Source: a virus. From it: 64,000 nt of DNA. The position numbers were made by a program, and so were the translations under genes. The notes under the pieces are model-generated. The model ran no database searches and was not told the DNA's origin. It worked only from the letters and a program-made list of their open reading frames with translations. Each line of letters starts with the position of its first letter. Position 1 is the first letter of the stretch. The DNA lies in the UHGV virus genome UHGV-1367859; one strand, written 5' to 3'. Shown here one piece after another: positions 6,741 through 58,100 of the stretch.

Positions 6741-6777
6741 ATGTCTCTTTCTGGTTTTTCTGTTGTGAGTGCGCCAC

Positions 6778-11558: not shown

Positions 11559-11630
11559 TGCCACTTGGTGTAATGGTCAGCACATCAGATTTTGGTTCTG
11601 AGTGTAAGGGTTCAAGTCCTTTAGTGGCAA
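11559..11630 (+). tRNA. tRNA-Gln(TTG)
   Basis: Acceptor TGCCACT/AGTGGCA, D arm GTGT-AATGGTCA-GCAC, anticodon stem TCAGA/TCTGA, loop TTTTGGT, T arm AAGGG-TTCAAGT-CCTTT. Confidence 0.8.
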
Positions 11631-11634
11631 CTAT

Positions 11635-15620: not shown

Positions 15621-15637
15621 GCATTGTTAATAAAATA

Positions 15638-15709
15638 TTGCCTCATGGTGTAATGGTTAGCACAGAGGACTCTAAATCCTTTGGTCTCTGTTCGAGCCAG
15701 AGTGGGGCG
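15638..15709 (+). tRNA. amber suppressor tRNA, anticodon CUA (tRNA-Sup(CTA), probably Gln-derived)
   Basis: TGCCTCA-TG-GTGT-AATGGTTA-GCAC-A-GAGGA-CTCTAAA-TCCTT-TGGT-CTCTG-TTCGAGC-CAGAG-TGGGGCG-A. The loop has U33, anticodon CTA and A37. The D arm and 5' acceptor match tRNA-Gln(TTG) at 11559. Confidence 0.8.
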
Positions 15710-15725
15710 ACTAACTTTAATCACA

Positions 15726-15875
15726 ATGAATAAGGAAGCTTTAAAATGGTTTATGTCCAATGTAATGCTCTAGCTAGAGCAGATTGACAAAGAGGTAAGT
15801 AACTCACTGTTGCAGGATGAACAGTTTGTTCTTGATTTTTATGATAAATTAAATGAAATAAGTGTTAGAAAATAA
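15726..15875 (+). CDS. small ORF (49 aa) with one in-frame TAG
   Basis: ATG ... TAA in one frame, directly 3' of the suppressor tRNA. Below the track's length cut-off. Confidence 0.2.
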
Positions 15876-15888
15876 AAAAAATATAATT

Positions 15889-16032
15889 ATGGAACAGGTA
15901 AAGATACCACACCCTATTGCTAGGATGGTGCTAACACAGACTAAAATTATTCTTAATAGCCCCAACAACCAAGACAAAGAGTGGCTCAAAACTTTTAAAG
16001 AAGAACTTAATAAACTTATTAATCCTGAGTAA
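15889..16032 (+). CDS. small ORF (47 aa)
   Basis: ATG ... TAA. Below the track's length cut-off. Confidence 0.2.
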   Translation: MEQVKIPHPIARMVLTQTKIILNSPNNQDKEWLKTFKEELNKLINPE

Positions 16033-16043
16033 TCTTTAGGAAA

Positions 16044-19511: not shown

Positions 19512-19920
19512 TATGACACTTGAAGATGTAATTGAATCACTTAATGTGCATATACTGAATAAAAGAAGAGACTTGCACATCTTGTCAAACAGCCAGGAAC
19601 ACCTTGTTCTACAGAGAGTTATAGAACCTCATCCTACATTTAAGTCATATAAGAGGTATGAGTTTATATTATGGGTGGTTGGTAATGATTCAAAGTATAG
19701 ATTACTTACTTTGACTAAGCAGGTTAATATGAGTGATATTCCTTCATATGCACAAGAGAGCTTTATTAAAGCTACAGAATCTGAATTTGTTACTGGGCTA
19801 TTCGGCCTTATTCTAGATGGCAAGTCTTTTAATAAAAAAGACAGAACAATACTTGAAGATATTATCTATGGAGAATACCTCGGCTATGGAGATGAATGTG
19901 TACTAGACCCCCTTGACTGA
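19477..19920 (+). CDS. hypothetical protein
   Basis: 147 aa with a TGA stop. The start is uncertain. Confidence 0.3.
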   Translation: MLRKKQCMKICNMTLEDVIESLNVHILNKRRDLHILSNSQEHLVLQRVIEPHPTFKSYKRYEFILWVVGNDSKYRLLTLTKQVNMSDIPSYAQESFIKATESEFVTGLFGLILDGKSFNKKDRTILEDIIYGEYLGYGDECVLDPLD

Positions 19921-22900: not shown

Positions 22901-24241
22901 TATAAGGTTAAATTAGCTGATGGCAGAATTGTAGAAGCTAGTAATAATCATATATGGCTAGTATATAAAGGAACTTCTAGAACTCCTATCGAAATTACTA
23001 CAGAAGAAATGCTTAGGTCAGGGTTAATAACTAAACACAAGCAACATAAGTTTTTTATACCTGAGCATAATGGGGTTGATTATAGTTATAAAGAATTGCT
23101 CATAGACCCCTATACTATGGGTTTATTGCTTTCTGAAGGGAGTCTAACAGGAGGTCATTGTGGCAAAAATTATGTACAGATGTCCTCTTCTAGGGAAGAT
23201 ATGGATTTCTACAAAAAGAATATCCCATATAGAGTTAACTATATTGGTAACAAGGGGTACTCTTGGCATATTTATATTCCAGGATGTAGAGATATAATGA
23301 CTAAATATGGGTTATATGGAGCTACAAGTCACACTAAGTTCATTCCAAATGAATATCTTTTCAGTAACTATGTTCAGAGAATGGAACTACTGAGGGGAAT
23401 AATGGATGGAGATGGGTGTGCCAGAACTAGGGGGGCTAGTGTATTTATTACATGCTCACAGTCACTTGCAAATAATGTATTATCCTTAGCTAGAAGTTTA
23501 GGGATGAAAGCATGGCTTCAGACTCCTAAAGAAGGGGTATATAGAGTGTTGATATCTTCCATATATAAGATATTCAAACTCCCTAGGAAAGTAGTGGAGC
23601 AACATACTTATAAGCCTTATAGTAAAGGAAGTAGAGCCTCAGCTATATTAGGAAAGACTGCGATAGATAGTATTAAATATTCTCACATGGAAATGGGCAA
23701 ATGTGTCACTGTAGACTCAGATGATGGACTATATATGATAGGAGATTATGTAGTAACTCATAATTGTAATAAGAAAGGACTATATGCCTATTTCAATAAA
23801 ATGAATTGCACACACCTACTGGCAGATACTCCTGAATATTTAAGAGACAAACAGATGATTAAGTATTCTGCCTTTGGCTCAAATGCAAAAGGTATCAATG
23901 CGAATGCTACTATCAACAATTATGCTAATAACCTGATAAGGGATTGGCTACTTCAGCCAGTTCCAACTATAATAAAGGAGGATGGAGAAGAGAAAGAGGT
24001 CAATATTCCAAGGCTCTATTCTCTAAGAAATAGAGCATTACTTGAAGAGTTAATTTCCTACACTCCTGAACTTAATGTGGATAGAATCAGGGCATTAGGT
24101 ATGGTTATGCTGTATAGACAAGAGAAGATTATACTGTATAGAGATAATCTTAATGCTAAGGCACAGGAGGAAGTCAGTAGTTCATACTTAGGCAATGATT
24201 CTTTCTTCCAAAGGAATTACTCCCAAGGGTATATACAGTAA
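19913..24241 (+). CDS. terL: terminase large subunit (TerL) interrupted by two inteins; three in-frame TAG codons
   Basis: Track ORFs 19913..21496, 21566..22606 and 22721..24241 share one frame and are joined through TAGs at 21494, 21536 and 22604. The C-terminal extein after the second intein is TerL-nuclease-like. It ends at TAA. Confidence 0.65.
20894..22015 (+). mobile_element. intein 1 (374 aa) with double-motif LAGLIDADG homing endonuclease
   Basis: It begins CVCAGTKVWTLDG (Hint block A). The LAGLIDADG motifs are LVGMLIGDGSYG and LLSGLYDTDGSIS. It ends VYNL ... IVTHN followed by the extein Thr. Two in-frame TAGs fall inside it. Confidence 0.65.
22760..23764 (+). mobile_element. intein 2 (about 335 aa) with LAGLIDADG endonuclease; N-terminal boundary approximate
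   Basis: The C-terminus GDYVVTHN followed by Cys (N at 23762-23764) is well defined. The LAGLIDADG motifs are MGLLLSEGSL and LLRGIMDGDG. Block A is VPTPNGMKLW ... IGDKL. The first residue could be Ala (22760) or Cys (22748). Confidence 0.5.
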
Positions 24242-28453: not shown

Positions 28454-29551
28454 ATGACTAAATAGGAAAAGGATGAACTATTTAATGAGTTGCTAGCTTT
28501 TCTCTCTAGGTCTTCAGTAAGTGTTGAAGACCTTCCAGAGGCTGGCAGCTTAGATGATGTGAATAGTTTTCCTGCATATAAGAAAGACTCTAAGGAGCTG
28601 GTAACCATTCCTTCTAGTGCTCTTAAAGAAGCTTCAAATAAAGCTGATGCAGCTGCTCAGTCTGCACTTAGTGCATCTTAGCAATGTATGATTGCTGGAG
28701 CTAATGCTAACAATGCTGTATAGAGAGTCAACTAGACCTTGAATTCTTTGCCTGGTTAGGTAGAAACACTGGTTAATAATTCTACTAGTGCACAGTCTAA
28801 TGTAAATTCTAGAATTATTAATTTCTATACAAGTAGACCTTCTTCTAATGCACTTGAATTAGAAATAACTGTATCAGAAAATGATTATAGAACTTTTGAA
28901 TAGCTTCTGGAAGAAGAGTATGACTATGCTGATAGTTATGACCATAGACCAATAATATTTACAGTTCTACAGAATAATGGTGTACCTAAGTATAGGAAGA
29001 TTGTTTATGACAATAACCTTAGGGATAGTTAGAACTATATTGACTATGACTTAAGTGGACTTCATGAGAGAATAGATACTCTTGACAGTAGGGTTCCTTA
29101 TGATGCAGGAATAATAGAACTAGATTTAGTAAGTCAAGGAGAAACAACTTCCAAACAGGAAACTTTATTGCCTTCTAATAAAAATTATTTCAAATTTATA
29201 GAGATACTAGAATAGAGGGATAATAGGACTGTGCTATGTACTATTGTCCCATCTAAAACTTAGGTAGGAAGTCCTTATACTGGTTTCAGATTCTTATGTT
29301 CTCTTCATAAGGATGGCTATGACTGGTCTATTCTTACAGGTAAATATATTGATGTTGGTGAGGATGCAATAAACATTTATTATCTTTGTATTAAATGTTA
29401 TAAGCCAACTTTTGGAGTAGGTGATGGGATGAGTATATTAAAGTATCCTATTAAACAAGTAACTATTAGGCTTACTGAAGGTGAAGGAGATGGTCATTGT
29501 ACAGAATTGTAGGAGATTAAAGCAACTGAAATAGTTGAAAAAATGATATAA
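28454..29551 (+). CDS. hypothetical virion protein, about 10 in-frame TAG codons
   Basis: One frame runs from ATG 28454 to TAA 29549. Track ORF 28490..28681 is its N-terminal piece. TAGs seen include tct-tag-caa, gta-tag-aga and aac-tag-acc. Confidence 0.5.
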
Positions 29552-29574
29552 TAAATGATAAATGAATTTTAAGT

Positions 29575-30633
29575 ATGGAAATTGAATATTTAGGAAAAAG
29601 CTCTTTTAATAAAATATAGAACTAGCTTCAGCTTCTTAATTCCTATAGTGAATGGAAAGACATCACTGAAGAGTGTGTTCATATTGGATATAAAGTTAAT
29701 CCACAGATAGTTCCTTAGGATTTGCAAGAAGGTAATGACATTTTTGTGGAAGATGAAAATAGTATTGCAATAAATGCTGTAAGCCTCTTATCAGAGGATG
29801 CTACTTGGTGTGGTGACTTGAACGTTGCGTATAACTTTAAAATATTAATTTAGCCTAAAGCTTCTTCTAGCTCTGACATGGGTTTAATTGCTCAAACTAT
29901 CTTAAGTAAGGATTTTGTTGGAAAAACCCTCGTAGTAAAAGCTGCTAATATTGGAGAGGAAGTGGAAGAGGATTACTCCATATAGGACATAACAGTTAGT
30001 GAAGTTTTAGAAAATGGACTTACATATAAATAGAGGGAGAGCAGGTTTTTCAATGAGAAGGAGCAATTTGTGGCAAGCCTAATGGTAAGTTAGGCAGTAG
30101 TATCTTTCCATTATAACCAGGAATATAAATACAAGGTAGTTTACAAAGACTCTGTCTTTACAACGCCAGCCGACTTTGTAAATAAAATGGTATATGGAGA
30201 CGCTCCTTTTAGTATGATTGGTTAGAAGCTCTCCTCCGCAACTTTCAGTGATGATACCGATTAGATAAGGACCCTCTGGCCATAGGGTTGGGCCTCTTTT
30301 ATAGTTGTTCCAGTATATGAAGGCGAGCCGAATGGTAATGTTAAGTCAGGTCTAAGAGTTGAATATTATAGTGGTGATAACACTAAACATGAAACTATAG
30401 TGGACAATACATCATACCAGTCTATATATGGTTAGACTGATTATCTTATTATACCAAAAGTAAAAGGAGCTACCTAGTCAGACTACCTAGTTATAGGTAG
30501 GATTGACTCAGCTTTTAAACCAGTGGGAGTTGAAATCTATGAGATGACTGCTCCTTATAGATAGATTGTCGATAGGGTAAGTGATGTAGACTATAGAATC
30601 AGAGAATTAGAAAAGTAGCTGAATGCTACATAA
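29575..30633 (+). CDS. hypothetical virion protein, about 17 in-frame TAG codons (about 5%)
   Basis: One frame runs from ATG 29575 to TAA 30631. No track ORF of 60 aa or more covers it because of the TAG density. Confidence 0.5.
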
Positions 30634-32856: not shown

Positions 32857-33756
32857 ATGGAAAAAACTTATGTTTTTGACACTGCCGACAGAGGTGGATT
32901 TGATTCTACTGCACTCTTAGCAAGTCTAATGGGTAACAGAGGTGTAGACCCTAATCTAATGGCTATGCTCACTAATGGCTCCAAGAACCAAGATGCTTGG
33001 GGAGGTGGAGGAATGTGGTGGATTTGGGTAATCATTATGTTCTGGCTATGGGGTGGAAATGGTAGAAATGGTATGTTTGGTAATGGTGCTGCTGATGGTA
33101 TTCCTAATCAGCTTAATAATGATTGGGGTAGAGAAGTACTTCTTCAAGCTATCAATGGTAATGGTCAGGCAGTTTCACAACTTGCCACAACTCTTAATTG
33201 TGATGTTAATGCCCTACAAGGTGCTATAGGCAATGTACAGAACTCTGTACAATCTGTAGCTAGTCAGCTTGGTATGACAGGTCAGCAAGTTATCAACTCT
33301 ATTCAGCAAGGTAACTGTCAGTTAGGTAATCAAATGGCCCAGTGCTGCTGCAATATTCAAGATGCCATCACTAGGACTAACTATGAGAGCCAACTTTCTA
33401 ATGTAAATCAAACCAACACTCTACAGAATGCTATTAACTTTGTTAATAGTTCAGTGGAGAGAGGGTTCTCATCTACAGCCTATGCTACTGCACAGCAGAC
33501 TTGTGACCTAAAGAATGCTATTGCACAACAGACCACACTTATTAATGATAAGTTCTGTCAGCTAGAAATGAGAGAAATGCAGAATAAGATTGATGCTCTA
33601 AGACAGGAGAACAGCCAATTAGCTCTAGCTGCTTCTCAGCAAGCACAAACTGCTAATATCATTAGTCAAGTAAGACCTACCCCAACTCCTGCTTATGTAG
33701 TTGCAAATCCTTATTGTAACTGTGGTAGCCCTTATACTAATGGATGCAATTGTTAA
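32857..33756 (+). CDS. Asn/Gln/Gly-rich membrane-anchored protein
   Basis: TM segment MWWIWVIIMFWLWGG, then a low-complexity Q/N-rich region and a Cys-rich tail. All Gln are CAA/CAG and there is no TAG. Confidence 0.4.
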   Translation: MEKTYVFDTADRGGFDSTALLASLMGNRGVDPNLMAMLTNGSKNQDAWGGGGMWWIWVIIMFWLWGGNGRNGMFGNGAADGIPNQLNNDWGREVLLQAINGNGQAVSQLATTLNCDVNALQGAIGNVQNSVQSVASQLGMTGQQVINSIQQGNCQLGNQMAQCCCNIQDAITRTNYESQLSNVNQTNTLQNAINFVNSSVERGFSSTAYATAQQTCDLKNAIAQQTTLINDKFCQLEMREMQNKIDALRQENSQLALAASQQAQTANIISQVRPTPTPAYVVANPYCNCGSPYTNGCNC

Positions 33757-33774
33757 TTTCTAAAGTATACAATT

Positions 33775-34206
33775 ATGGCAGTAACAGTTTCACCAGTAGG
33801 ATTAGCCACTGCTCCAGTGGCTAATGAGTTAGCCTTCATGGCTACTTACAAGGAAAAGCTATGCCGTCCGTTCTGTGTAGATTCAACTATACAACCTCAG
33901 GTATCTGTAGTTTATACTACAGGTACCCCAAGGTTGGTTGAGACAACTGTCTTTATCCCTGTCAAGGCAGTGATAACAGTTGTAACTCAGAATAGTCAGT
34001 GTGGTTGCAATGCACATACTCAGCTATTTACTGAAAACTTTGTAGTTGCATTCCAGGGTCAGACTGCTCTACCTACAACAGTAACACTTACCAATGTGGG
34101 AAGAGACCAGTTTGGGTCTAATATAAATTGTGGATGTGCTTTCTCATACACAATAAATGACTCTCTGACTCTTGCTATAACACCACCTGCTGCACCAGCG
34201 GCATAA
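33775..34206 (+). CDS. hypothetical protein
   Basis: 143 aa ORF. Confidence 0.4.
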   Translation: MAVTVSPVGLATAPVANELAFMATYKEKLCRPFCVDSTIQPQVSVVYTTGTPRLVETTVFIPVKAVITVVTQNSQCGCNAHTQLFTENFVVAFQGQTALPTTVTLTNVGRDQFGSNINCGCAFSYTINDSLTLAITPPAAPAA

Positions 34207-34232
34207 ATTTAACCAACTAAATTATCAACAAT

Positions 34233-34745
34233 ATGTTTTCCAACTTAAGAACTAACAGTCAGATATACATACTGCACAAAGAATCTACCCCCTATGTTGA
34301 AGTGGGTCAGGTACTGAGTGTTTCACAACCTCAGCCTAGATTCCCAGTGGCTAACTTCATGAACCCTCAGGAACTCGTAGTAGATGTTGTAGTGAGGATA
34401 AATGGTAATGATGTTACATTGCAGAAGCTTCCTGCAAACCTTGATGTTGCAGACCAAGGAACTTCTAACGGAGCTTTGGTTATAACTACATCAAGAGAAG
34501 CTATGAATGCAGAGGTAGATTCACTCAGACAGAAGAGTCTTGGCATCCTTAATAGTGTAGATTATCATAAGAAAATAGTTCAAGATTGTGAAGTATTACT
34601 TCAAAGATTAAATCCAGAGTTTGCAGAACAGAAACAACAAAAGCAAGAGATAGATATGCTGAAGTCTCAGATGTCTGAAATGATGACAGATATGAAAGAA
34701 TTAATGGCTCAGCTTAAGTCAAAGGAAAGCACAACTAAATCATAA
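34233..34745 (+). CDS. hypothetical protein
   Basis: 170 aa with a coiled-coil C-terminus. Confidence 0.4.
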   Translation: MFSNLRTNSQIYILHKESTPYVEVGQVLSVSQPQPRFPVANFMNPQELVVDVVVRINGNDVTLQKLPANLDVADQGTSNGALVITTSREAMNAEVDSLRQKSLGILNSVDYHKKIVQDCEVLLQRLNPEFAEQKQQKQEIDMLKSQMSEMMTDMKELMAQLKSKESTTKS

Positions 34746-36696: not shown

Positions 36697-38211
36697 ATGG
36701 CTGGAAAACTGAATAAGTTCCAAATGATTGGCTTTTCTCACTGGAAAGGTCTGACAAAGGACAACCACCTTGGTCAAATCTTCCAGCTTGCTCCACAGAA
36801 GGCAACTAACCTAATGGTACAGCTATTAGCTTGGTATAGAGGTAAGACTCTTGATACCTTCCTAAGCCAGTTCCCTACAAAAGAGTTTGAAGATGACTCA
36901 GAATATTACTGGGATGTAATTGGCTCTACCAGAAGGAACATTCCTCTGCTTGAAGCAAGAGATGAGAATGGCAATGTAGTAACCGCAACAACTGTTGCCA
37001 ATGTGGGTGTTGGTACAGCTGTATTTGAGCTTGTCTTCCCTGAAGACTGGTTTGCTGATGGTGAAGTAATTGTAGGTAATCTGAATGAAGTATATCCCAT
37101 GAGGATTCTTGGTAATCCGAGAATGGAAGGTACTAATGCAGTTTACAAGGTAGAGCTAATGGGTGGAATAACCCAAGGTATTCCTGCTGAGAGACTCCTT
37201 CCAGGAGAAAGATTCAGCTATGAATATGCTCCTGTAGAAAGAGCACTTTCAAGGAAAGTTGGTGATGTTAGATTCACTTCTCCCGTATCTATGAGAAATG
37301 AATGGTCTACCATCAGAATCCAACATAAGGTACCTGGCAATATGCTCAACAAGAAACTTGCATGTGGTATTCCTGTAACAAAGGAAACTCCTACAGGTTA
37401 CACTAAGTCTGTGGTTAACATGTGGATGCACTATGTTGACTGGGAAGTTGAACAGACATTCTCTGAATACAAGAATAACATTCTTGCTTTTGGTAGAAGC
37501 AATAGAAACAACAATGGAGAGTATCTGAACTTTGGTAAGTCAGGTGAAGTTATCAAGATGGGTGCTGGTCTGTTTGAACAAATGGAAGTAGCAAATACCC
37601 AATACTACAACAAGTTCAGTCTGAAACTTCTTGAAGATGCTCTGTATGAACTGTCTGCATCCAAGCTTGACTTTGGTGACAGGTACTTCGTCATTAAGAC
37701 AGGTGAAAGAGGTGCTATACAATTCCATAAGGCTGTACTTCAGACTGTAAGTGGATGGACTCAGTTCACACTTAATGGTGATGCTCTGAATGTTGTTGAG
37801 AAGACACAAAGTACTCTTCATACTAATGCTCTTGCAGCTGGCTTCCAGTTTGTAGAGTACAGGGCACCTAATGGTGTAAGAGTGAAGCTTGATGTTGACC
37901 CATACTATGATGACCCAATAAGAAACAAGGTACAACACCCTGATGGTGGACCTGCCTTCTCTTACAGGTATGACATCATGTACATTGGTACTATGGACCA
38001 GCCCAATATCTTCAAGTGTAAGATTAAGGGACAAGATGAGTTCAGAGGTTATCAATGGGGATTGAGAAATCCTTTCACAGGTCAGCTTGGTAATCAATTC
38101 ATGTCATATGATGAAGATTCAGCTACCTTCCATAGGATGGCTACTCTTGGTATTTGTGTTCTTGACCCAACTAGAACAATGTCACTTATCCCTGCTATAC
38201 TACAGGGCTAA
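36697..38211 (+). CDS. major capsid protein candidate
   Basis: 504 aa, which matches the size of crAss-like HK97-fold capsid proteins. It is TAG-free, follows the scaffold-like gene and is followed by a strong terminator. Confidence 0.45.
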   Translation: MAGKLNKFQMIGFSHWKGLTKDNHLGQIFQLAPQKATNLMVQLLAWYRGKTLDTFLSQFPTKEFEDDSEYYWDVIGSTRRNIPLLEARDENGNVVTATTVANVGVGTAVFELVFPEDWFADGEVIVGNLNEVYPMRILGNPRMEGTNAVYKVELMGGITQGIPAERLLPGERFSYEYAPVERALSRKVGDVRFTSPVSMRNEWSTIRIQHKVPGNMLNKKLACGIPVTKETPTGYTKSVVNMWMHYVDWEVEQTFSEYKNNILAFGRSNRNNNGEYLNFGKSGEVIKMGAGLFEQMEVANTQYYNKFSLKLLEDALYELSASKLDFGDRYFVIKTGERGAIQFHKAVLQTVSGWTQFTLNGDALNVVEKTQSTLHTNALAAGFQFVEYRAPNGVRVKLDVDPYYDDPIRNKVQHPDGGPAFSYRYDIMYIGTMDQPNIFKCKIKGQDEFRGYQWGLRNPFTGQLGNQFMSYDEDSATFHRMATLGICVLDPTRTMSLIPAILQG

Positions 38212-39287: not shown

Positions 39288-40082
39288 ATGTCGCAAATTG
39301 AAAACCTTATGACTGCGGAAGAAAGAAGAATAAGAAATTAGGAATTTAGTAATGAGTTTGATATAATTTACAACAGCATTACAAGTAATCAGGCTCCTGG
39401 TTTGGATGAATATGAGAAGTCTGTATTTCTAACTAAGGCTCAAGATGAAGTAGTAAAAGCTTATTTTAGTCCAAAAACTAATAAGTCTCAAGAAGGTTTT
39501 GACGGAAGTGAGATAAGGTAGATTGATTTCTCTATGCTCGTGGGAGACCGTACAATAGCAGATGCAGACTCTTTTTTAGATGCACACTTTGGCAATAGAA
39601 AAAGCAGTAAAAGTATCATCCTTCAAGATGATATATTCATGTTTATCAACGAGTATGTTACAGTTTAGAGAGGTAATAACGAAACTAGATTAACTGTTAT
39701 CCCTATTAGTTACTTGGAGTATAATAGACTCACTAGCAAACCTTACAAATATCCTCTAAAAAACCAAGCTTGGAGATTGCTTATTTCTGACAGTAATAGA
39801 AAGAAAGTTGAATTAATTTTAGGATATTAGGATTCCTTAATTAGTTATACCTATAGATTTGTTAGACGTCCTAAAGCTATTAGACTAAGTACATTTGACG
39901 GTCTTACTATAGGAGGTGAGAGTAGTGAGGAATGTTGTGAGCTTGACCCAATACTATTTCCAGAGATTATTCAAAGAGCTTGTGAGCTAGCTAAGGCTGC
40001 TTATATTGGAGACCTTACTTCACAGGTTGCTCTTGGTCAGACATCACAGACTAATATGGGTATTGTAACTCAAAGTAGATAA
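39288..40082 (+). CDS. virion protein, paralogue A (5 in-frame TAGs)
   Basis: One frame runs from ATG 39288 to TAA 40080. EFSNEFD ... DEYEKSVFLTKAQDEV is homologous to the N-terminus of the next gene. No track ORF covers it. Confidence 0.5.
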
Positions 40083-40084
40083 TT

Positions 40085-40780
40085 ATGACAAATGAAGAGT
40101 TCTCAAATGAATTTGACAGCTTAGTCAACAGCAACTCTATCATCAAGCCATTTGGTGTAGACTCTATGCCATTGGAATTTGATGAATATGAAAAGTCAAT
40201 GTTCCTTACAAAGGCACAGGAGAGTATAGTGATAGCACTCTACAATGGAAACCTTATAGGAGATTCATTTGAGAAAACAGAGGAACTTAGAAGGTACTTA
40301 AGTGGCCTAGTAAAGGATTACCCTGCTACTGAATATGTAAGAGGTAATAGCCTGACAGGTGACTCTTATATCTTTAACCTTCCTGAGGATGTTTGGTTTA
40401 TAACCTATGAAGCTGTAACATCAGATGATGAGAAACTAGGTTGTGCTAAAGGTTCCATTATGGAAGTAGTTCCTGTATCTCAAGATGAACTTCATAAAAC
40501 AAGAAGCAATCCATTTAGAATGCCTAACAAGAGGAGGGTATTAAGGCTTGATGTGGAAGACAATAAGGTAGAACTTATCTCTGCATTTACTATAAGTAAA
40601 TATCAAATTAGATACTTATCAAAGCCAGACCCCATAATCCTTGTAGACCTGCCTGATGGACTGACAATAAATAAATTATCAAAAGCAACTAAATGCAAAT
40701 TAAACCCTGCAATACACAGAGTAATACTAGAAATGGCAGTTAGCCTTGCCTTGAAGAGTAGAACCAGTGCAGGTAAGTAA
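40085..40780 (+). CDS. virion protein, paralogue B (TAG-free)
   Basis: 231 aa. EFSNEFD ... FDEYEKSMFLTKAQESI is similar to paralogue A. Confidence 0.5.
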   Translation: MTNEEFSNEFDSLVNSNSIIKPFGVDSMPLEFDEYEKSMFLTKAQESIVIALYNGNLIGDSFEKTEELRRYLSGLVKDYPATEYVRGNSLTGDSYIFNLPEDVWFITYEAVTSDDEKLGCAKGSIMEVVPVSQDELHKTRSNPFRMPNKRRVLRLDVEDNKVELISAFTISKYQIRYLSKPDPIILVDLPDGLTINKLSKATKCKLNPAIHRVILEMAVSLALKSRTSAGK

Positions 40781-40798: not shown

Positions 40799-41842
40799 AT
40801 GGTATTTTCAACTAACCAAGTAAGACAACTTTATGTAGTCACAGCAGTACAGGGTGCTGCAAAGGGGACAGATGGTAAGGTGAGTGAATCAGATGCTGCT
40901 GGTACCATTGCTCTCAAGGCTGATGCTGAAGGTAAGAACCTGTTCTTCCAGTATAAGGGGGCTGATAACCTTATGAGGAGTGACCTCATCAACATAGACA
41001 ATATTCTCTATGCCAAGGCTGTAAGTGCAGAGGCTGCTACTCAGAAGTATGCACTCAAGCAGGCTGTAGTTAAACTTGATGCTACTGTAAATGGTGGTGC
41101 TCCTATTGGAGGTCAGGATTACATCCTTAGAATCTGCATCAATCCTTATATAGGCATGTCTGATGAGGGACCCTATTATAAGTATGGTGCTGTACATGCT
41201 ACAAGAAACATGACTGCTGCTCAGTTCTATACTAAGCTTGCAGCTTCTCTCTACAAGAACTTCAGCAGAGAACTTAGCAAGATGCTTGAGTTCACTATAG
41301 CTGGAAAGGTTGTAGGAAGGGTAAAGACAGATGTCAATGGGGAAGAAACTCTGATTGATACTACTGGAGCAGCTATTACTGTAGCTGAGGACTATGAGGA
41401 TGGTGTTACTATCACAGAGGTAGAACAGGAATGGACTCGTGGTATCAAGGAGCAGTCTGAGGTTAATTTCACAGTTACTCCTACTACAGTAACCTTTGAT
41501 GGTGAAGAAGTTAAGTGGGGTACAGTGACAGTAAGTGACTCTGCTAAGGTAAGAAACAATGGCAGAATGATTGCAGACCTTGAGTACTTCTGCATGGGTG
41601 AAAGAGGTGACCAATACAGAGATATTGGATGGCCTAATAGCATTCCAACCAAGTATCTTATTGACAACCCTGATACTGCATACAATGTCCTTGAAATCCA
41701 CTATGCTTATGTAGGTTCTAATGAAGGACCACAAAGGTCAGAGAAGGATATCACTATTGTATGTGCTGACAAGGCACAGCTAAACAAGCTCATTGGTCAG
41801 TTTGCTGAAGCCTCTAAGGTACAGGTTGCAGAACTAGCCTAA
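40799..41842 (+). CDS. abundant structural protein candidate (347 aa)
   Basis: TAG-free and followed immediately by a strong terminator. The composition suggests a beta-rich Ig-like fold. Function not assigned. Confidence 0.4.
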   Translation: MVFSTNQVRQLYVVTAVQGAAKGTDGKVSESDAAGTIALKADAEGKNLFFQYKGADNLMRSDLINIDNILYAKAVSAEAATQKYALKQAVVKLDATVNGGAPIGGQDYILRICINPYIGMSDEGPYYKYGAVHATRNMTAAQFYTKLAASLYKNFSRELSKMLEFTIAGKVVGRVKTDVNGEETLIDTTGAAITVAEDYEDGVTITEVEQEWTRGIKEQSEVNFTVTPTTVTFDGEEVKWGTVTVSDSAKVRNNGRMIADLEYFCMGERGDQYRDIGWPNSIPTKYLIDNPDTAYNVLEIHYAYVGSNEGPQRSEKDITIVCADKAQLNKLIGQFAEASKVQVAELA

Positions 41843-41885: not shown

Positions 41886-42401
41886 ATGATAAAGTATAAT
41901 AAGCTACAGATAGATGGTAACAAGCTCATAATAGACTTTGAGATAGAAGACAAGCCCTATTATGACAGTTTAAGTATAGAGGGTGTAAGAGTTGATACCC
42001 CTCTTACTTATGGAACTGACACTCCATACTTTCTTTACGATGAAGATGATGTAACCCAATATACTACAGAAATCTTCATTCCAGATGCCAAGAAAGAACT
42101 TCTTATCATCACTCCTATAGTCTATATCTCTCTCCCCCCTGATACTCCTTGTGGAGCTGATGTTATTGATATGGCTGCCATTTATGATAGAAATATCTTG
42201 ATAGATAAGGGGCTTGGATACCTTAAAGAGCTTGGGGATACCTGTGAAATATCAAGGGGCTTTGTTGATTTCATACTTAACAGATATGCTCTTGATATGG
42301 CTATAGCTACTTGCAACTATAGTACTGCTATTAAGTACTGGAAGATGCTCACAATGGTAAAAGGAACAACTCTAAAAGGATGTGGATGCAATGGAAGATA
42401 A
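41886..42401 (+). CDS. hypothetical protein
   Basis: 171 aa ORF. Confidence 0.4.
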   Translation: MIKYNKLQIDGNKLIIDFEIEDKPYYDSLSIEGVRVDTPLTYGTDTPYFLYDEDDVTQYTTEIFIPDAKKELLIITPIVYISLPPDTPCGADVIDMAAIYDRNILIDKGLGYLKELGDTCEISRGFVDFILNRYALDMAIATCNYSTAIKYWKMLTMVKGTTLKGCGCNGR

Positions 42402-42720: not shown

Positions 42721-43372
42721 ATGGTTAGAGGAATTATATACAGATATTTATCTCCTAGTGGGAAGTCTTATATTGGACAAACTACTAATGAGAAACTAAG
42801 ACGAAGAAGTTGGATGTCTGATAAATACCACTATGCTGGAGCTAAAATAGATAGAGCCAGAGCCAAGTATGGTAGTAGCTCATTCTTATATGAAGTATTA
42901 TATATCTAAGAAGCTCGCAATAGAGGACCTAAATAGATTAGAAATATACTACATAGGGCTTTATGATTCATATAGGAATGGTTATAATTGTACTATAGGT
43001 GGGGATGGAGTCCAAGGATTCAATATGAGTGTTTCTCAAAAAGAGCATCTCAGGGAATGTAATCTAGGAAAGAAATTATCTGCATCTACGAAGAGAAAGA
43101 TAGGAATTGCTTCTAGAAGATGGCAAAATACTCCAATTAATAGAGGAAGGATGTCCTCTATAAGAAAAGGCAGAAAAAATCCGAATGCAATAGCAGCAAT
43201 GACCTTAGCTAAAGAGAGACCTATATTGCAGTTCACAATGTCTGGTGAGTTTATTAGAGAGTTCCCCAGTATTAAGGCAGCTTATGAGTTTCTTGGTAAA
43301 GAAGGTAACATAACAAGTGTGTGTAAAGGTAGAAGAGCCTCTGCCTTTGGCTATGTATGGAAGTATAAATAA
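42721..43372 (+). pseudogene. GIY-YIG homing endonuclease disrupted by a frameshift near 42870-42909
   Basis: The GIY ... YIG half (IIYRYLSPSGKSYIGQTTN ... R ... Y) is in track frame 42667..42909. The catalytic Glu/Asn half and NUMOD repeats are in frame 42869..43372. Compare the intact copies at 18317 and 44125. Confidence 0.45.
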
Positions 43373-43394
43373 ATCAAAAAAAAGAAAAATAAAT

Positions 43395-44123
43395 ATGACA
43401 TATAGAGAAATTGCTTACATGTGTCTAGATTCTTTGAAAGTAGTATCTGATGACTCATACATAACATTGGAGCATGTCCTATTTCTAATATCAAAGTTAA
43501 GAGCTTTAATACTGAAGCAAAGATATTCTGATATAAAGAAAGAGATACCCCAAAGTAACTACCAAACTATCTGTTTAGACCTTATACAAGTACCTGCTAT
43601 TGCAGGAGAACCTTGTGAGGGTGGTACATATCTTAGGAGTGAAAAGAAAGTGCCTTCAACTATGTCTATAGGTACAAACACAGTGTATCCTGTAGACTTC
43701 TATCAAGGTACCCATATTACTTATGTAAGTAGGGAAAGAATGAGATATGTGGGTGAAAATAAATGGCTTAAGAATATTATCTATGTATCGAAAGGCCCAG
43801 ATGATTACCTATATTTCAAGTCAAGTAACCCCCAGTTCCTATACCTTGAAAAGGTAAGAATGACAGGCATCTTTGAAGACCCTGACAAAGCAGCAGAACT
43901 TGAGTGTGACTCAGGTGATAAGAAATGTGATGTACTAGACAGGGAGTTCCCTCTTGAAGAAGGACTTGCATCTACACTGATTGAACTTGTAGTCAAGTAT
44001 CTCTCTGGTGCAGTGTATAGGGGAAAAGATACTGCCAACAATGCTTCAGATGATTTGTCGGATATAGCAACATTTATTAGAAGAAATATGAAGGGTAATT
44101 TTCAAAAGCAATTAGAGGAGTAA
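43395..44123 (+). CDS. hypothetical protein
   Basis: Track ORF 43317..44123. The likely start is the internal ATG 43395 (MTYREIAY ...). Confidence 0.4.
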   Translation: MTYREIAYMCLDSLKVVSDDSYITLEHVLFLISKLRALILKQRYSDIKKEIPQSNYQTICLDLIQVPAIAGEPCEGGTYLRSEKKVPSTMSIGTNTVYPVDFYQGTHITYVSRERMRYVGENKWLKNIIYVSKGPDDYLYFKSSNPQFLYLEKVRMTGIFEDPDKAAELECDSGDKKCDVLDREFPLEEGLASTLIELVVKYLSGAVYRGKDTANNASDDLSDIATFIRRNMKGNFQKQLEE

Positions 44124-44124: not shown

Positions 44125-44832
44125 ATGAAAGAATATTGTTTATATAAACATACCACCCCATCAGGCAAAGTATACATAGGTATAACCAGCCAAGACCCAC
44201 TTCACAGATGGAACAATGGTAAGGGTTACTTTAACTGCAAGAACTCTCCCTTCAAAAATAGTATAATAAAGTATGGATGGGACAATATAACGCATGAAAT
44301 ACTTTATACTGGAATGACAGAACAAGAAGCTATAAGTAAGGAGAAACAATATATAGCCTATTATAAAAACTTAGGGGTCAGTCTTAATATAACAGATGGG
44401 GGAGAAGGATGCACAGGGGTTACTCCTTGGAACAAGGGTATTAAAGTTCCTTATGAAAAATCCAATAAGAGAAGGGGATGTACTCTTACAGAATCTCATA
44501 AGAAGAAGTTGAGTATAGCCCATAGAGGAAAATCATCTAGAGGTTCTGGATGGAAAATGAGTGAGAAACAAAAGGAATGTCTTAGACAAGTAAATCTTGG
44601 TAGGAAAAGACCTATGTGTGAAAGGTTGAAAATATCTGAGAACTCACCAATGTCTAAGATTGTACAAATGCTTGATAGGGAGGGAGAAGTACTAGCTGTG
44701 TACAAATCAGCTACAGAAGCAGCCTTAGCTCTAGGAGTAGATAAATCATGGTTAAGTAAGTGTTGCAGGACTGGTAAGCTTTGCAGAGGATACAAGTTCA
44801 AATATGGAGGAGTTCAGAAAGAAGGTACTTAA
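44125..44832 (+). CDS. GIY-YIG homing endonuclease
   Basis: CLYKHTTPSGKVYIGITS ... R ... YGWDN ... E ... Y ... NITDGGEG plus NUMOD-like repeats. Confidence 0.7.
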   Translation: MKEYCLYKHTTPSGKVYIGITSQDPLHRWNNGKGYFNCKNSPFKNSIIKYGWDNITHEILYTGMTEQEAISKEKQYIAYYKNLGVSLNITDGGEGCTGVTPWNKGIKVPYEKSNKRRGCTLTESHKKKLSIAHRGKSSRGSGWKMSEKQKECLRQVNLGRKRPMCERLKISENSPMSKIVQMLDREGEVLAVYKSATEAALALGVDKSWLSKCCRTGKLCRGYKFKYGGVQKEGT

Positions 44833-45328
44833 AGTAAGTGAGTCAAGAGTCTATAGAGTGAATAACTCATATGGAGTATATGATGCCTACAAGTATATCA
44901 GAAAGAACAAGTGGTTTGATATAGGACAACCTGTCACAGAGCATCAGTTCTACTCCATTATAAGAAGAATGAATAACCTCCTTGCTGATACACTCATACA
45001 TGGACATGACATAGAACTGCCATGCAGGATGGGTACCATAGAGGTAAGGAAGTATGATGCAAGAGTCTCAATTGAAGATGGCAAGGTTAAGACAAACCTT
45101 CCTATAGATTGGGACAGAACACTTAAACTATGGTCAGAAGATGAGGAAGCCTATAAGGAAAGAACACTCATTAAAATGGAGGAAAAAGAAATCTTCAAGG
45201 TCTACTATAACAGGATTGATGCAGACTACAACAATAAATCCCTCTATGAATTTGTAGTGAACAGAGACCTTAAAAGGAGATTGAAGCAAAGAATTAAAAG
45301 TGGTAACTTTGATGCTTTTAAGATATGA
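44804..45328 (+). CDS. hypothetical protein
   Basis: 174 aa ORF. Confidence 0.4.
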   Translation: MEEFRKKVLKVSESRVYRVNNSYGVYDAYKYIRKNKWFDIGQPVTEHQFYSIIRRMNNLLADTLIHGHDIELPCRMGTIEVRKYDARVSIEDGKVKTNLPIDWDRTLKLWSEDEEAYKERTLIKMEEKEIFKVYYNRIDADYNNKSLYEFVVNRDLKRRLKQRIKSGNFDAFKI

Positions 45329-46023
45329 CAAAATATATAAGCATAAGACAAGTTCTTGATAACCTGATGGATAATCCCTTGCTACAAGATTTATCTTTAG
45401 AAAGGGCAGTCAATTATGCTGTCAGGTTCATACAGAAGGTAGGTATGCCCTCAATATTCCTTGAGAAAACAGAGAAGGTTGAGATAGAGAATTATAGAGG
45501 TAAGCTACCTTGCGACTTCTATGAAATGATACAGGTAAGAGCAGTTGGTCATAACTGTAATGGAGTACTTCATGAAGTATTCAGATACTCTACTGATTCA
45601 TTTCATATGAGTCCTGATAAGACAAGAGATAATGACCTTACCTATAAACTACAGGGAAGTTGTATTTTTACTTCTATGAAGGAAGGAACTATAGAAGTAG
45701 CTTATAGAGCTTTCTCGACAGATGAAGAAGGATTCCCTCTCATACCAGAGAATGGTTCTTTTGAGGAAGCACTTGAGCTATTTATAAAGGTAAAACATTT
45801 TACAGTTCAGTTTGAGCTTGGTAGGATAACTCAACAGGTTCTGCAACACGCAGAACAACAATATGCTTGGGCAGTGGGTCAAGCTCAGTCTGACCTTGTT
45901 AGGCCCTCTATTGACCAACTCCAATCTTTCACTAATTCTTGGAATACTTTAATCTCCAGGACTAATGAGCATAGCAAAGGGTTTAAAACTCTTGGTTCTA
46001 AGGAGTATATCAAACTTCATTAA
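45325..46023 (+). CDS. hypothetical protein
   Basis: 232 aa. The start overlaps the previous stop as ATGA. Confidence 0.4.
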   Translation: MTKYISIRQVLDNLMDNPLLQDLSLERAVNYAVRFIQKVGMPSIFLEKTEKVEIENYRGKLPCDFYEMIQVRAVGHNCNGVLHEVFRYSTDSFHMSPDKTRDNDLTYKLQGSCIFTSMKEGTIEVAYRAFSTDEEGFPLIPENGSFEEALELFIKVKHFTVQFELGRITQQVLQHAEQQYAWAVGQAQSDLVRPSIDQLQSFTNSWNTLISRTNEHSKGFKTLGSKEYIKLH

Positions 46024-53381: not shown

Positions 53382-55160
53382 ATGGCAAGCTACGGTTTAA
53401 TACTTAATACTAAATTCAAGCCATTCTCCTATGCAGAGATGCTTGCACCTGTAGCTGCTGCTACTCAAGCACATCAAGCTCTAGAAGAGGAATATGGCAA
53501 ACTATCTGCTAAGGCTAATGTATGGGAAGAAATGGCTAATGAACAAACAGACCCTTACGCATATAAGATGTATAAGACCTATTCTGATGACCTTGAGACT
53601 AGAGCTGAACAGTTAATGAGGTATGGTCTTAATCCAGCAAGTAGGAAGAGTATGCTTGATATGAGAGCAAGATATAGCAAGGAAATAGTCCCTATTGAAA
53701 CTGCTTATAAGAGAAGAGAGGCACTGGCACAGGAACAGAGACAAGCTATGGCTAAAGACCCTACTCTAAGGTATCAAAGATATGCTAGAGATATGAGCTT
53801 AGACGATTTTATAAAATCTCCTTCATTAGATTATGGCAGTAGTTATTCAGGAGAGCTGCTTAGAAAGCAGGTAAGTCAAATAGTAGCTAATTATCAGAGA
53901 GAATTGACTGACCCAGGCAAGCTGGAGAAACTAGGACTACCTTATCAGTATAAGATTAAGAAACAGCAAGGAGCTACTTCTGCTGATATATGGGCTACCA
54001 TAAACAGAGATGCTAGTATGGGAAATCCTGAAGCAGTGGCCTTTCTTACAAGAATGAGGGATTCAGCTTTACAAGCATCTGGAGTATATGACTGGGCCAG
54101 TAAAGAGGACTTGGTGCACTTCCAGAACTTTGCTAATCTTGGATTGGCTGATGCTATTGGTAAATCTGACATAAGTACAGTTAAAGATGACTATAGTATA
54201 GCTATGGCTAAAGCTGCTTATAGTGGTCTTGGAAGGTCTAGAAGGACTAGAAGGGGAGGTGATTCAAATGATAATGACAGATTGCCCTACAGAAGAATAT
54301 CTACTATTTCTGACACTGATAAGAAATCAATGAGTAAAGGGAAATCAGTACTAGAATTTGTAAATGGGATGATGGGTCATTACGGAGAATTAGCTAATGC
54401 CAACAAGGCAGTAACCCTTTCTAGAAAAGACTCTAAGAAGTTGCTAGAGACTCCCGCAGATGCCACAAGAACGCAGGTTAATATCGGGGCAAGGACTAAT
54501 GGGCAAGAAATAGATACAAGCCTTACTTCTGCAAATGCTGGTAGACGGAGGAAATCTCTTGATGAATATGCTTCCAAATATGGTACTTCTATAGACTACT
54601 CTAGTGAAGCAGCATATGAAGCTAGTATAAAAAAACTGCAAGGAGCTGTACAACAAGATATACAGAAGTCAATGTCACTTAGCTCTGTATGGTATCCTAA
54701 TTCTACAAATCTTGAATATGTAACGGAGCCAATTGTCCAAGCAGTTCAGACTTTAAGTACTACAGCTGCATTAAGAGGTGAAAGAACAGGCATAGTTGAT
54801 AAAAAGGGCAAAGCAGTTTCTTCAAAAGACTTAGACAAAATAGTCTCAAGTAGAGCCAAAATTCAGTTTAATTTTAATAGAGGAGGTGACATAGAGGCAT
54901 GGTTGAGCTATAAAGAAAAGGAGAATGGGGAAAATAAATATATTAAAATACCTGTTGATGCTCTTGATATGGGGGATGGAACACTTATAGGCCTATATAG
55001 TAAAGCCTCCTCAGCTCAAAAATCTGGGGACTTTATAAGAGCAGCAGAGTATATGGATGATATACAATCATATCTAGATGCAGCTGCAAATTCTAGAGCA
55101 GAGGTACAATCAAAATCAAGTTCAAATTTAGAATTTTCATTCCCATGGCTAGAGGATTAA
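53382..55160 (+). CDS. hypothetical virion protein
   Basis: 592 aa, TAG-free, with a TAA stop. Confidence 0.45.
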   Translation: MASYGLILNTKFKPFSYAEMLAPVAAATQAHQALEEEYGKLSAKANVWEEMANEQTDPYAYKMYKTYSDDLETRAEQLMRYGLNPASRKSMLDMRARYSKEIVPIETAYKRREALAQEQRQAMAKDPTLRYQRYARDMSLDDFIKSPSLDYGSSYSGELLRKQVSQIVANYQRELTDPGKLEKLGLPYQYKIKKQQGATSADIWATINRDASMGNPEAVAFLTRMRDSALQASGVYDWASKEDLVHFQNFANLGLADAIGKSDISTVKDDYSIAMAKAAYSGLGRSRRTRRGGDSNDNDRLPYRRISTISDTDKKSMSKGKSVLEFVNGMMGHYGELANANKAVTLSRKDSKKLLETPADATRTQVNIGARTNGQEIDTSLTSANAGRRRKSLDEYASKYGTSIDYSSEAAYEASIKKLQGAVQQDIQKSMSLSSVWYPNSTNLEYVTEPIVQAVQTLSTTAALRGERTGIVDKKGKAVSSKDLDKIVSSRAKIQFNFNRGGDIEAWLSYKEKENGENKYIKIPVDALDMGDGTLIGLYSKASSAQKSGDFIRAAEYMDDIQSYLDAAANSRAEVQSKSSSNLEFSFPWLED

Positions 55161-58100
55161 CAGGTATAAATACAAAAGAAGGGGCGGCTAGAGAAGCAGA
55201 CAGGATGGGTCAAGCTCCCACAAGTTTTAAATCAGCAGTAAGGCAGAGACTAAGAGAAACTCCCTCAACTCAGTATATAGGAGATACTGTACCAGAAACA
55301 TTTGGTGACTCATCATATGATTATAATGCTGTGCTTCCTAGTGAACTTGAAGACCTTCAGGAGCTGAGAGCTTCTGAACAATCAGGTGTGAACCAACTAG
55401 CAGCAGGTATAGCCAAGGGGGCTATACTTGCTGGCGCTACATTTTTAGATGGTACTGTCGGACTGCTCCTAGGAGCTGGAGCTGCTATAAATGAGGGGAG
55501 ATGGTCAGCTATTTGGGATAATGACTTCTCAAAAGCTATGCAAGCTGTAAATGAGTGGTCAGAAGAAGCTCTTCCTAATTACTATTCCAAAGAAGAGCAA
55601 GAAGGGCCATGGTATGACAACATATTTACAGCTAACTTTATTGGTGATAAGTTCATTAAGAACTTAGGGTTCTCAGTAGGAGCCTTATATTCAGGAGGTG
55701 TAACCTCAGCTGGGCTTAAAGCTACAAAGCTGCCTCAATTGATAGGAGCTATAACTAACAGTGCTAAAGCTCCTGCAATGGTATCTACAGCTGTTGGGGC
55801 TGTTACTTCGGCAGTAAATGAGGGAAGAATTGAGGCTTTGAACAATTCTAAGGACTGGCAAAACCTTAAAGTACAGGAGCTGGATGATATATGGAAGCAG
55901 AAATTAAACGAAAAGTATCAGCCTGAGCTAGATGCCTTAAAAGCAGAATATGATGCTGCTCTCGCAGAATATGAATCAACCAAAGGAACTCTTCAAAGAG
56001 CAGGTTCAGGGGATAGTACAGCTTTGGCAGACCCAGCTTATTAGAAGTACAGAGCCAAACTTGATAGTCTTGACAAAAAGATGGAGGCCCTACAAAACAC
56101 TATGAGTGCTATGTGGGACAACAGGTCAGCTGATAAGACATATAGGGAAGCCTTAGGTAGAATCTCAGAGGATAGACTTAAGATGGGAAATACAGACTTG
56201 CTTCTCAATCTTCCTATACTCATGGCCTCTAATATTGTTCAATTTACTAAGTTTTATTCTAGGGGATTTAACACTGGCAGGAGAGCCAGTGTGGGATTGG
56301 CTGAAGGGGCAACTAGAAATGCACCAAGATACATTGGAAAGGAATTTTCGCCTATAAAGGCAGCTGGAAAAGTTATAAAGGGCGCAGCAGCAGAAGGTAC
56401 AGAAGAAATATCTCAGAGTGGCGCCAGTGCAATATCAGGGGATTATTATTCTACCGATGTTAACAACTTCATCAAATCAAAGATAGACCCAGATGCAGAG
56501 CAAGAGACCTTAAGTTGGACTAAATCTTTTGCTAAGGGTATCAATGAGACTATTAATGATAGTTCAGCTTGGGAGGAGTTTTTCATTGGTGCACTTACTG
56601 GTGCTTTGGGGATTCCCACATTTAGAAGTATGAAGAACTCAGAGGGGGGATTTAGACTTCCTATAGAAATACAAGGTGGTGCTTGGAATGAAATAAAAGA
56701 GTATCAAAGAGAGGTTGCAAGGTCCCAAGAAGTTGCGAATTATCTTAACCAAAGGGTGCAATCTCCTGAGTTTCTCAATTATTATCAGGGTCTCATCAGA
56801 CATAATAAGTACCAAAGAGACATGAATCAGGCTGTTGAGGATGATGATGAGTTTAACTTCAAAAATGCAGAACATGCTCAGTTTGTATCTGATATTATAA
56901 TGTTTGATAATGCAGGAAGATTGGAAGACCTTAGAACTCTTATAGATTCTTCCTTTGATATGTCAGATGAAAACTTGCAGTCTATAGTAGAGAATACTAC
57001 TTCTACTGATGAAAATGGTAAAAGGATTGGCCCGTTTGTAGATAATAATGGGAATCCTATGTATGCTACTGAAGAGGGCAAGAAGTAGATGACTGCTAAG
57101 CTTACTGCTTCCAGGGATAATATGATTGCTACTTTAGACAATTATGTAAAAACTAAAGAGAACATTGATATAAGAACAGGTGGAAATCTCACAGATGAGC
57201 AACTGTCAGAACTCACTTGGATGAAAACTCAGGTAGATGACTGGACTAAGAGAGCCAATGAAATGACTCCCCTAGTCAAAAAGACTCTTGCTGATTTAAG
57301 CAACAATTTGGAACTCAGACTTGCATCTACTCTTAATAATGTAAGTAGTGAAGGAAATGCCAGTGATATAGAAGCAGTAGGAGAACTTGCTAATAAACTT
57401 GGCATAGGGAGTAAAAGAATTAAGCAACTTATGGAACTATCTCACATGGAAGATAGTAGGTTGGCTGCAATTTTGACATCCCCTAAAAATGAGAAATTTG
57501 TAGAGGGTCTCATAGAAGATATTAACAGCTTTGGTAGTGATATTATAGCATCGTTAGATAAACAAAATGTGGTGAGGCTCCTACAAGACTTACCAAAAAT
57601 AGGTAAGGGGGTACAGACCTATAATAAGAAGTTAGAAGAGTACCTTACAGACCCTGCTAAAATTCAGGGGGATATTGAAGCTGCTACCCAACAGGTAGCT
57701 ACTCAACAAGCTGAGAAGAAAGCTGCTGATTTAAAAAGCAGACTATCAGCTGCAAATAGTGTATCTGAACTAAGGTCTATCATTACTGAAGAGAACATGG
57801 ATTCTGCTGTAGAGGGTGTTTTAGGGGAACTTGAAGCAGAAGGCAACCAAGTTGCAAAGAATTATAGAGAAACTGCCCAATACAATAGAGAACTGAATAA
57901 GGCTCTTTCAGAAACTGGGGAGGATGAATAGGTACTTCAAGATGCCATGTCCTTGTGGTAGGAACACTCTAATGCTGCTGAGAATCTTGAACAACTTGCT
58001 AATCCTAACTCCATCTTTATCAATAATGAAGAAGCCTTTATGGAAGACTCAGGTGGTGATGTAGATGTTGCTGGTAATAGGTTCCAAAATGCAAGATATG

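Follow-up and report, generated by a model that had tools for sequence, protein, structure and literature searches.

Unequal TAG load of the tandem ring protein genes in a code-15 crassvirus

The virus genome UHGV-1367859 from UHGV was analyzed here as a single stretch of 64,000 nucleotides (nt), referred to below as the window. At positions 39288 to 40780, it contains two adjacent genes for related virion proteins, one of which (gene A) carries in-frame TAG codons, whereas the other (gene B) carries none. Does this difference mean anything? The original prediction offered two explanations, a duplication followed by divergent codon usage or the acquisition of a homolog from a recoded phage, and held that the TAG-bearing copy would be made only once a suppressor is expressed. 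By the sequence comparisons described below, gene A is ring protein 4/5 (R4/5) and gene B is ring protein 3 (R3) of a Steigviridae-type crassvirus. Both the gene pair and the TAG-to-Gln code are already known, and the TAG asymmetry between A and B has neither statistical nor comparative support. It is likely to be a matter of Gln content and chance, with allele history possibly contributing.

The ring protein gene pair

The two genes and the TAG codons of gene A are as follows.

39288..40082, plus strand: gene A, ring protein 4/5, ortholog of ΦcrAss001 gp34 by its matches to PF25710 and 7qoj_E
39339..39341, plus strand: TAG1, at a variable position (Q, S, L, N, or E among orthologs)
39519..39521, plus strand: TAG2 (codon 78), at the invariant Gln of the R-Q-I-D-F-S motif
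39666..39668, plus strand: TAG3 (codon 127), variable middle region; T, K, W, S, or N in orthologs
39828..39830, plus strand: TAG4 (codon 181), variable middle region; N, E, or I in orthologs
40085..40780, plus strand: gene B, ring protein 3, ortholog of ΦcrAss001 gp35 by its matches to PF25710 and 7qoj_D

The frame of gene A is free of internal TAA and TGA codons and is terminated by a TAA. It includes four in-frame TAGs, at 39339, 39519, 39666, and 39828 (codons 18, 78, 127, and 181 counted from 39288), and not the five claimed originally, although the coordinates and the frame had been given correctly. As predicted, no standard-code open reading frame (ORF) of at least 80 amino acids covers this segment; the N-terminal blocks quoted for the two genes are also correct, as are the coordinates of both. 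Judging by homology with the nearest alleles, those of loci L216 and L218, gene A probably starts at its second ATG, at 39309. With this start, its N-terminal length equals that of L216/L218, TAG1 becomes codon 11, and the product has 257 amino acids instead of the 264 counted from 39288. Gene B, which begins 2 nt past the stop codon of gene A on the same strand, encodes 231 amino acids with 3 Gln codons and, just as had been noted, no TAG.

Both products fall into the Pfam family PF25710 (gathering threshold, 27 bits), with matches that exceed the threshold and span almost all of the model. Gene A matches positions 2 to 222 of the 230 in the model (E value of 2e-51, 174.9 bits) and gene B matches positions 1 to 224 (E value of 8.8e-89, 297.1 bits). 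A PHROGs search with the products of both genes gave no match, and their identity came from Pfam. Among PDB chains, gene A matches 7qoj_E, “Ring protein 4/5 gp34,” with an E value of 3.4e-60 and gp35 with only 8.6e-17, whereas gene B matches 7qoj_D, “Ring protein 3 gp35,” with an E value of 4.3e-69 and gp34 with only 6.6e-23. The two genes are thus reciprocal best matches to different ΦcrAss001 proteins, and their identity to these orthologs (49% between A and gp34, 52% between B and gp35) exceeds their identity to each other, which is 32% across 238 amino acids in BLASTP with TAG read as Gln (E value of 6e-24). The latter similarity is full length, extending far past the shared N-terminal block, and A and B are tandem paralogous virion genes as described originally.

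In ΦcrAss001, the tail barrel consists of five stacked dodecameric rings, with R3 made of gp35, R4 and R5 made of gp34, and R5 touching the hexameric muzzle; gp34 and gp35, which are 30.6% identical, have been called “more recent paralogues” (PMC10172136). The ring protein 3/4 fold has two domains (three conserved helices plus a β-sandwich) and assembles into dodecameric tail-barrel rings. We infer ring function and stoichiometry in the window phage by analogy with ΦcrAss001: R4/5 would form both of the distal dodecameric rings, with the last one docked on the muzzle.

A sensitive protein search with gene A yielded 4781 homologs. Among 83 related loci, the A-B tandem is found in 66 and an A-A-B arrangement with a third copy in 11, that is, in 77 of 83 altogether; the tandem lies downstream of the major capsid protein (MCP) gene, between the genes for gp33 and auxiliary capsid protein (AuxCP). 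Because of this conservation, the orthology to gp34 and gp35, and the earlier publication of the pair, the duplication is, by these comparisons, an old and conserved one that long predates the present phage. A recent lineage-specific tandem duplication was rejected, given that A and B are less similar to each other than to their respective orthologs and that both copies are present in nearly all loci. Neither of the origins proposed in the original prediction survives in its initial form: divergent codon usage after duplication is not borne out for a pair that is old and already known, and no extra homolog has been acquired, since A and B each have their own ortholog in ΦcrAss001. A weaker form of the second proposal stands, in that the gene A allele is discordant with its flanks and has its nearest alleles in recoded phages.

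The third gene of the ring 3/4 family in the 11 loci mentioned above is located between the R4/5-like and R3-like genes and is approximately 35 to 38% identical to A. Examples include L005 (3438..4439), L043 (from 5298), L031, L050, L051, L053, L058, L076, and L082. The ΦcrAss001 paper speaks of lineages with fewer ring copies, not more (PMC10172136).

TAG as a glutamine codon in the window

The original prediction also proposed checking whether the TAG positions align to Gln in the paralog. None of the four TAGs of gene A does so (the aligned positions in B are E, R, A, and a gap). With only 32% identity between A and B, this comparison is uninformative, and the orthologs were compared instead. 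At TAG2, the nearest standard-code relatives have CAG and several other recoded relatives have TAG; over 69 R4/5 orthologs, the codon at this site is CAG in 46, CAA in 16, and TAG in 7. The TAGs at this site come from several separate recoded lineages (the window, L005, L007, L020, L021, and L043). Recurrence of TAG at an invariant Gln suggests that C-to-T change occurred repeatedly at this site.

The same correspondence is seen across the window. When its TAGs are aligned with the nearest standard-code relatives, CAG or CAA is found in 37 of 79 aligned cells, and the runner-up, Glu, is found in 7. Homology runs across the in-frame TAGs of conserved genes, including gp33, R4/5, portal, the large terminase (TerL), cargo protein 1, and the muzzle. 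In the read-through ORFs of the plus strand, TAG makes up 105 of 650 Gln-type codons (a share of 0.16), and the minus-strand block at 1 to 8.2 kb is essentially without TAG. The sole minus-strand gene terminated by TAG is 6715..7104, where suppression would add 21 codons before the next TAA.

ARAGORN detects 23 tRNAs in the window, one of them with the anticodon CTA. The features of interest are as follows.

15639..15711, plus strand: suppressor tRNA, anticodon CTA (ARAGORN; Rfam tRNA, 55 bits)
11559..11631, plus strand: tRNA-Gln(TTG) (ARAGORN)
15626..16043, plus strand: 418-bp insertion with the suppressor tRNA, directly upstream of tRNA-Thr

Among the window tRNAs, the suppressor is nearest to tRNA-Gln(TTG), with 64% identity and 23 of the first 26 nt the same, albeit by a slight overall margin; this phage tRNA-Gln is likely an evolutionary relative of the suppressor. 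The latter sits at the 5′ end of the 418-bp insertion, where homology to relatives stops at 15625 and restarts at 16044. In the nearest standard-code relatives (L137 to L140), the syntenic tRNA arrays contain neither a tRNA(CTA) nor the insertion; in these arrays, just about 15 nt lie between the homologous points that flank the insertion site. Rfam and ORF scans of the insertion detected the tRNA and nothing further, and an IMG/VR search with the suppressor anticodon arm retrieved no donor, only contig 3300045988_037736, which is conspecific with the window phage.

With a tRNA(CUA) present and TAGs aligned to CAG or CAA in relatives, the phage is crAss-like and TAG recoded, as the original prediction had it. 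On the evidence of these alignments, it is a code-15 Steigviridae-like phage in which TAG is read as Gln. The use of code 15 in crAss-like phages is known from bioinformatics (Yutin et al. 2021, PMC7886860; Borges et al., bioRxiv 10.1101/2021.08.26.457843), and Peters et al. 2022 (PMC9523058) reported that metaproteomics showed Gln at TAG in two other crAss-like phages.

Four TAGs against none

There are 15 Gln-type codons in gene A (4 TAG, 4 CAG, and 7 CAA) and 3 in gene B. Counted per Gln codon, the contrast between 4 of 15 and 0 of 3 is not significant (Fisher p = 1.0). At the TAG share of the window, 3 codons would be without TAG with a probability of 0.59, and 15 codons would include at least 4 TAGs with a probability of 0.21. 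The mean number of Gln codons per ortholog is 11.9 for R4/5 and 5.5 for R3. Furthermore, R3 orthologs do carry TAGs in six relatives, namely, L005 (7/9), L020 (4/6), L021 (4/14), L024 (4/6), L043 (8/16), and L216 (3/5), and the pattern is opposite in the recoded L218 (6001..7478) and L219, where TAG is found at 0/15 in R4/5 and 4/7 in R3. The idea that TAG makes copy A specifically late is contradicted by these relatives. Because the contrast is not significant per Gln codon and is missing or reversed in recoded relatives, a copy-specific timing role was rejected.

In the mechanism that we favor, the phage would translate its late genes with TAG as Gln through its own Gln-like tRNA(CUA), and the four TAGs in A against none in B would be due mainly to A holding five times as many Gln codons; genes of a mosaic genome would also differ in history, adding to the uneven TAG load. 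The original expectation that gene A is made only under TAG suppression was judged correct, with four TAGs in its frame. The virion as a whole would depend on suppression in the same way, since TerL, portal, gp33, R4/5, the muzzle, cargo protein 1, and the ORF 55145..62497 all contain TAGs. We infer that virion assembly would wait for the suppressor altogether and that a TAG-free R3 would alter nothing.

Two observations speak against Gln content and chance as the explanation. Against the TAG share of 0.075 in the “backbone” genes, which are lightly recoded, 4 of 15 in gene A is rather high (P = 0.02), and TAG use is strongly uneven across late genes (chi-square p = 3e-35). A factor beyond chance shapes the TAG load at genome scale.

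A rival explanation is regulation: the TAGs of gene A would hold back R4/5 until the suppressor is active, with R3 made earlier, thereby ordering the assembly of the barrel. Without suppression, translation of gene A would stop almost immediately, at the TAG located at codon 11 or 18, and a published model has recoded stops gating the translation of late genes, with gene families differing in TAG preference (bioRxiv 10.1101/2021.08.26.457843). Such a design is nonetheless quite improbable here, given the insignificance of the asymmetry per Gln content and its absence or reversal in other recoded relatives. R3 could not usefully assemble before suppression, with recoding affecting TerL (5 TAGs), portal (2 TAGs), and the muzzle partner of ring 5, which with 40 TAGs among 62 Gln-type codons is the most recoded gene of the window; elsewhere, there is 1 TAG in gp33, 6 in cargo protein 1, and 4 in the 2450-amino-acid read-through ORF 55145..62497. 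In addition, cotranscription of A and B is likely, as they lie 2 nt apart on the same strand. Still more remote, to the point of being negligible, is the interpretation of gene A as a decaying pseudogene next to B as the sole functional ring 3/4 gene. The standard code does break the frame of A four times, and no ORF is called, but its 264 codons are free of TAA, TGA, and frameshifts, homology to gp34 crosses every TAG, and the conspecific contig keeps all four TAGs with only 4 codon differences. The presence of the tRNA(CUA), the alignment of TAGs in other essential genes to Gln in relatives, and the retention of an R4/5 ortholog in nearly all relatives point the same way, and this interpretation was rejected.

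An explanation by allelic replacement is compatible with that by Gln content and chance. According to it, gene A, perhaps along with TAG-rich tail-tip genes and the suppressor tRNA, came from a long-recoded crassvirus and was joined by homologous recombination to a standard-code-type backbone; the TAGs of gene A would be a legacy of recoded ancestors, and gene B would be part of the standard-code-like backbone. We view this as possible but short of probable. In its favor, the gene A tree is at odds with its flanks. In neighbor-joining (NJ) trees with bootstrap, the only trees used, the clade of the window, L010, L014, and L038, of which L014 and L038 use the standard code, has 100% support for MCP, gp33, and AuxCP, 83.5% for R3, and 0% for R4/5. 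Amino acid identity to L014 is 99% for MCP, 94% for gp33, 74% for gene B, and 56% for gene A, and DNA similarity to L014 ends within A, being about 88% up to 39536, none over 39536 to 39935, and about 80% beyond. The nearest nonconspecific alleles of gene A among the 4781 homologs are 65 to 67% identical. The contigs of two of these alleles, which were examined further (P0002 and P0003; L216 to L219), are TAG recoded, with MCPs about 80% identical to that of the window, and the L216/L218 alleles have in common with A a seven-residue-longer N terminus and a C-terminal CCELDPILFPEIIQRAC motif. Gene B is 57 to 60% identical to L216/L218, below its identity to L014. TAG share also tracks divergence: TAGs account for 3 of 161 Gln-type codons in regions with 85% or more local nucleotide identity to a standard-code relative, 9 of 131 at 70 to 85%, 12 of 36 below 70%, and 70 of 274 with no nucleotide hit (Fisher p = 2e-10 for the first class versus all other codons and 4e-15 for codons aligned at 70% or more versus the 82 of 310 below 70% or with no hit). 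The next-nearest genomes (contigs 042591, 025205, 031323, and 049815), with amino acid identities of 89 to 95% for portal and 98 to 99% for MCP, have zero in-frame TAGs in any matched gene, and the suppressor tRNA is located in a clean insertion missing from relatives.

Several observations count against such a replacement. No donor with a near-identical gene A allele was found among the 4781 homologs (the best allele is 66 to 67% identical), the NJ placement of gene A is weak (12.7% with L216/L218/L042 and 43% with L030), and none of its four TAG sites is TAG in L216/L218. L014 has CAG at the TAG2 site, and a single C-to-T change in place could account for this TAG. Four-fold-site identity is low in gene B as well, and both ring genes may be recombination prone or fast evolving. 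The three Gln-rich genes at 32857..34745 lack a close counterpart, yet TAG is found at 0 of their 56 Gln codons; owing to these TAG-free genes, TAG share per gene correlates only weakly with similarity to the standard-code relatives (Spearman coefficient of −0.35, p = 0.09). Finally, between the window and the conspecific contig, gene A is nearly unchanged, with 99.5% identity in DNA, the same four TAGs, and 4 codon differences, whereas B shows 50 synonymous and 37 nonsynonymous codon differences and the block at 40.2 to 43.4 kb differs as well. The ring region is a recombination-prone part of a mosaic genome.

The window segment 40200..43400, which begins just past the A-B junction and includes R3, AuxCP, and tail hub, has 71 to 93% nucleotide identity to contig 037736; beyond approximately 52.3 kb, the two are unaligned except for a weak 458-nt match of about 70% identity (52721 to 53178).

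Other candidate indicators of the origin of gene A were tried and rejected. Four-fold-site identity to L014 is 0.53 for A and 0.57 for B, compared to 0.72 to 0.79 for MCP, gp33, and AuxCP, which does not separate a foreign A from a native B. Gene A lies on a long branch, and with the above-mentioned 12.7% support it could not be placed in the recoded L216/L218/L042 clade. Common ancestry of A with the muzzle was also considered, but the muzzle N terminus is 44% identical to that of L216/L217 and 42% identical to that of the standard-code L089, which is not discriminating, and an IMG/VR search with the muzzle retrieved the conspecific contig only, with no donor.

A more sweeping scenario, which appears doubtful, is that the phage is a recent chimera, in which a backbone with nearly the same protein sequences as standard-code phages gained the 418-bp suppressor cassette and bears tail-tip modules (R4/5, muzzle, and fiber-like genes) long evolved under code 15. 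If this were true, the TAG load per Gln codon would serve as a “molecular passport” of segment ancestry, R4/5 would have its TAGs through travelling with its docking partner, the muzzle, and modular recombination, in addition to gradual in-place accumulation, could spread code 15 between standard-code and recoded crassviruses.

Other genes of the window and comparison with known systems

The neighbors of the ring genes and other virion genes of the window are as follows.

36697..38211, plus strand: MCP (gp32 ortholog; PF23898, E value of 2.8e-219), with TAG at 0 of 23 Gln codons
38274..39269, plus strand: gp33 ortholog, 331 amino acids, with one TAG at 38799 aligned to CAG in relatives
40799..41842, plus strand: AuxCP (gp36 ortholog; PF25650, E value of 5.8e-109), TAG free
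41886..42401, plus strand: tail hub protein A (PF25724, E value of 2.6e-23)
43353..44123, plus strand: ring protein 2 (PF25702, E value of 7.5e-66)
45325..46023, plus strand: probable ring protein 1, 63% identical to an L216 gene bearing PF24228
45965..50803, plus strand: probable muzzle protein, homologous to an L216 gene with PF25731/PF25729, with the start likely near 46034
19748..24241: TerL, a 1497-amino-acid read-through ORF with 5 TAGs and two intein/homing-endonuclease insertions (Intein_splicing, LAGLIDADG_3, and Hom_end)

The TerL gene of the conspecific contig is without the segment corresponding to window positions 22758 to 23768 and has about 1 kb added at the position of window 20443. 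Ring protein 2 is separated from the next tail gene by a GIY-YIG/NUMOD homing endonuclease gene (44125..44832), which the conspecific contig has as well and the standard-code relatives do not. At 28454..30633 are two fiber-like genes in which TAG makes up 59% and 67% of the Gln codons (10 and 14 TAGs, respectively). Neither has a homolog in the standard-code relatives, and the second is just 34% identical even in the conspecific contig. The genes at 32857..34745, three in succession (299, 143, and 170 amino acids), have no counterpart in close relatives and are exceptions to the TAG richness of unmatched segments; the first of them is Gln/Asn rich with a Cys-rich C terminus. Pfam searches with the TAG-rich fiber-like genes and with the Gln-rich genes gave zero matches.

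In practical terms, standard-code gene callers will miss or split R4/5, gp33, portal, TerL, the muzzle, and other genes in this genome. At the same time, near-identical backbones with and without the suppressor insertion and with and without in-frame TAGs make a clean natural comparison, which could help to study how a phage passes from standard code to code 15 and whether recoded modules are carried between lineages by recombination.

The closest characterized system is ΦcrAss001 (Kehishuvirus primarius; PDB 7QOJ/7QOK/7QOL/8CKB; Bayfield et al., Nature 2023, PMC10172136). In both phages, CrAss_Ring_3_4 (PF25710) covers the two ring genes, the gene order is MCP, gp33, R4/5, R3, and AuxCP (gp32 to gp36), and the identity between the paralogs is similar (30.6% in ΦcrAss001 and 32% in the window). 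In contrast to the window phage, ΦcrAss001 uses the standard code and has TAG-free ring genes, and its gp34 has no counterpart of the longer N terminus and of the C-terminal tail (…TSQTNMGIVTQSR) of the window R4/5. The tail adaptor and tail-joining proteins of HK97, Mu, P22, and gene transfer agents have no sequence-level match to the window ring genes; they form one ring, whereas crassviruses pile up several paralogous rings.

From other code-15 crAss-like phages, the window phage shows no essential difference. It shares with them the limitation of TAGs to plus-strand genes, mainly of the late/structural module, as well as its own tRNA(CUA), TAG at Gln sites, standard-code close relatives, and a TAG load that varies by gene family. 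What is special here is that the nearest relatives are without TAGs and without the suppressor and that the latter comes in a defined 418-bp insertion, which makes for an unusually clean before/after pair.

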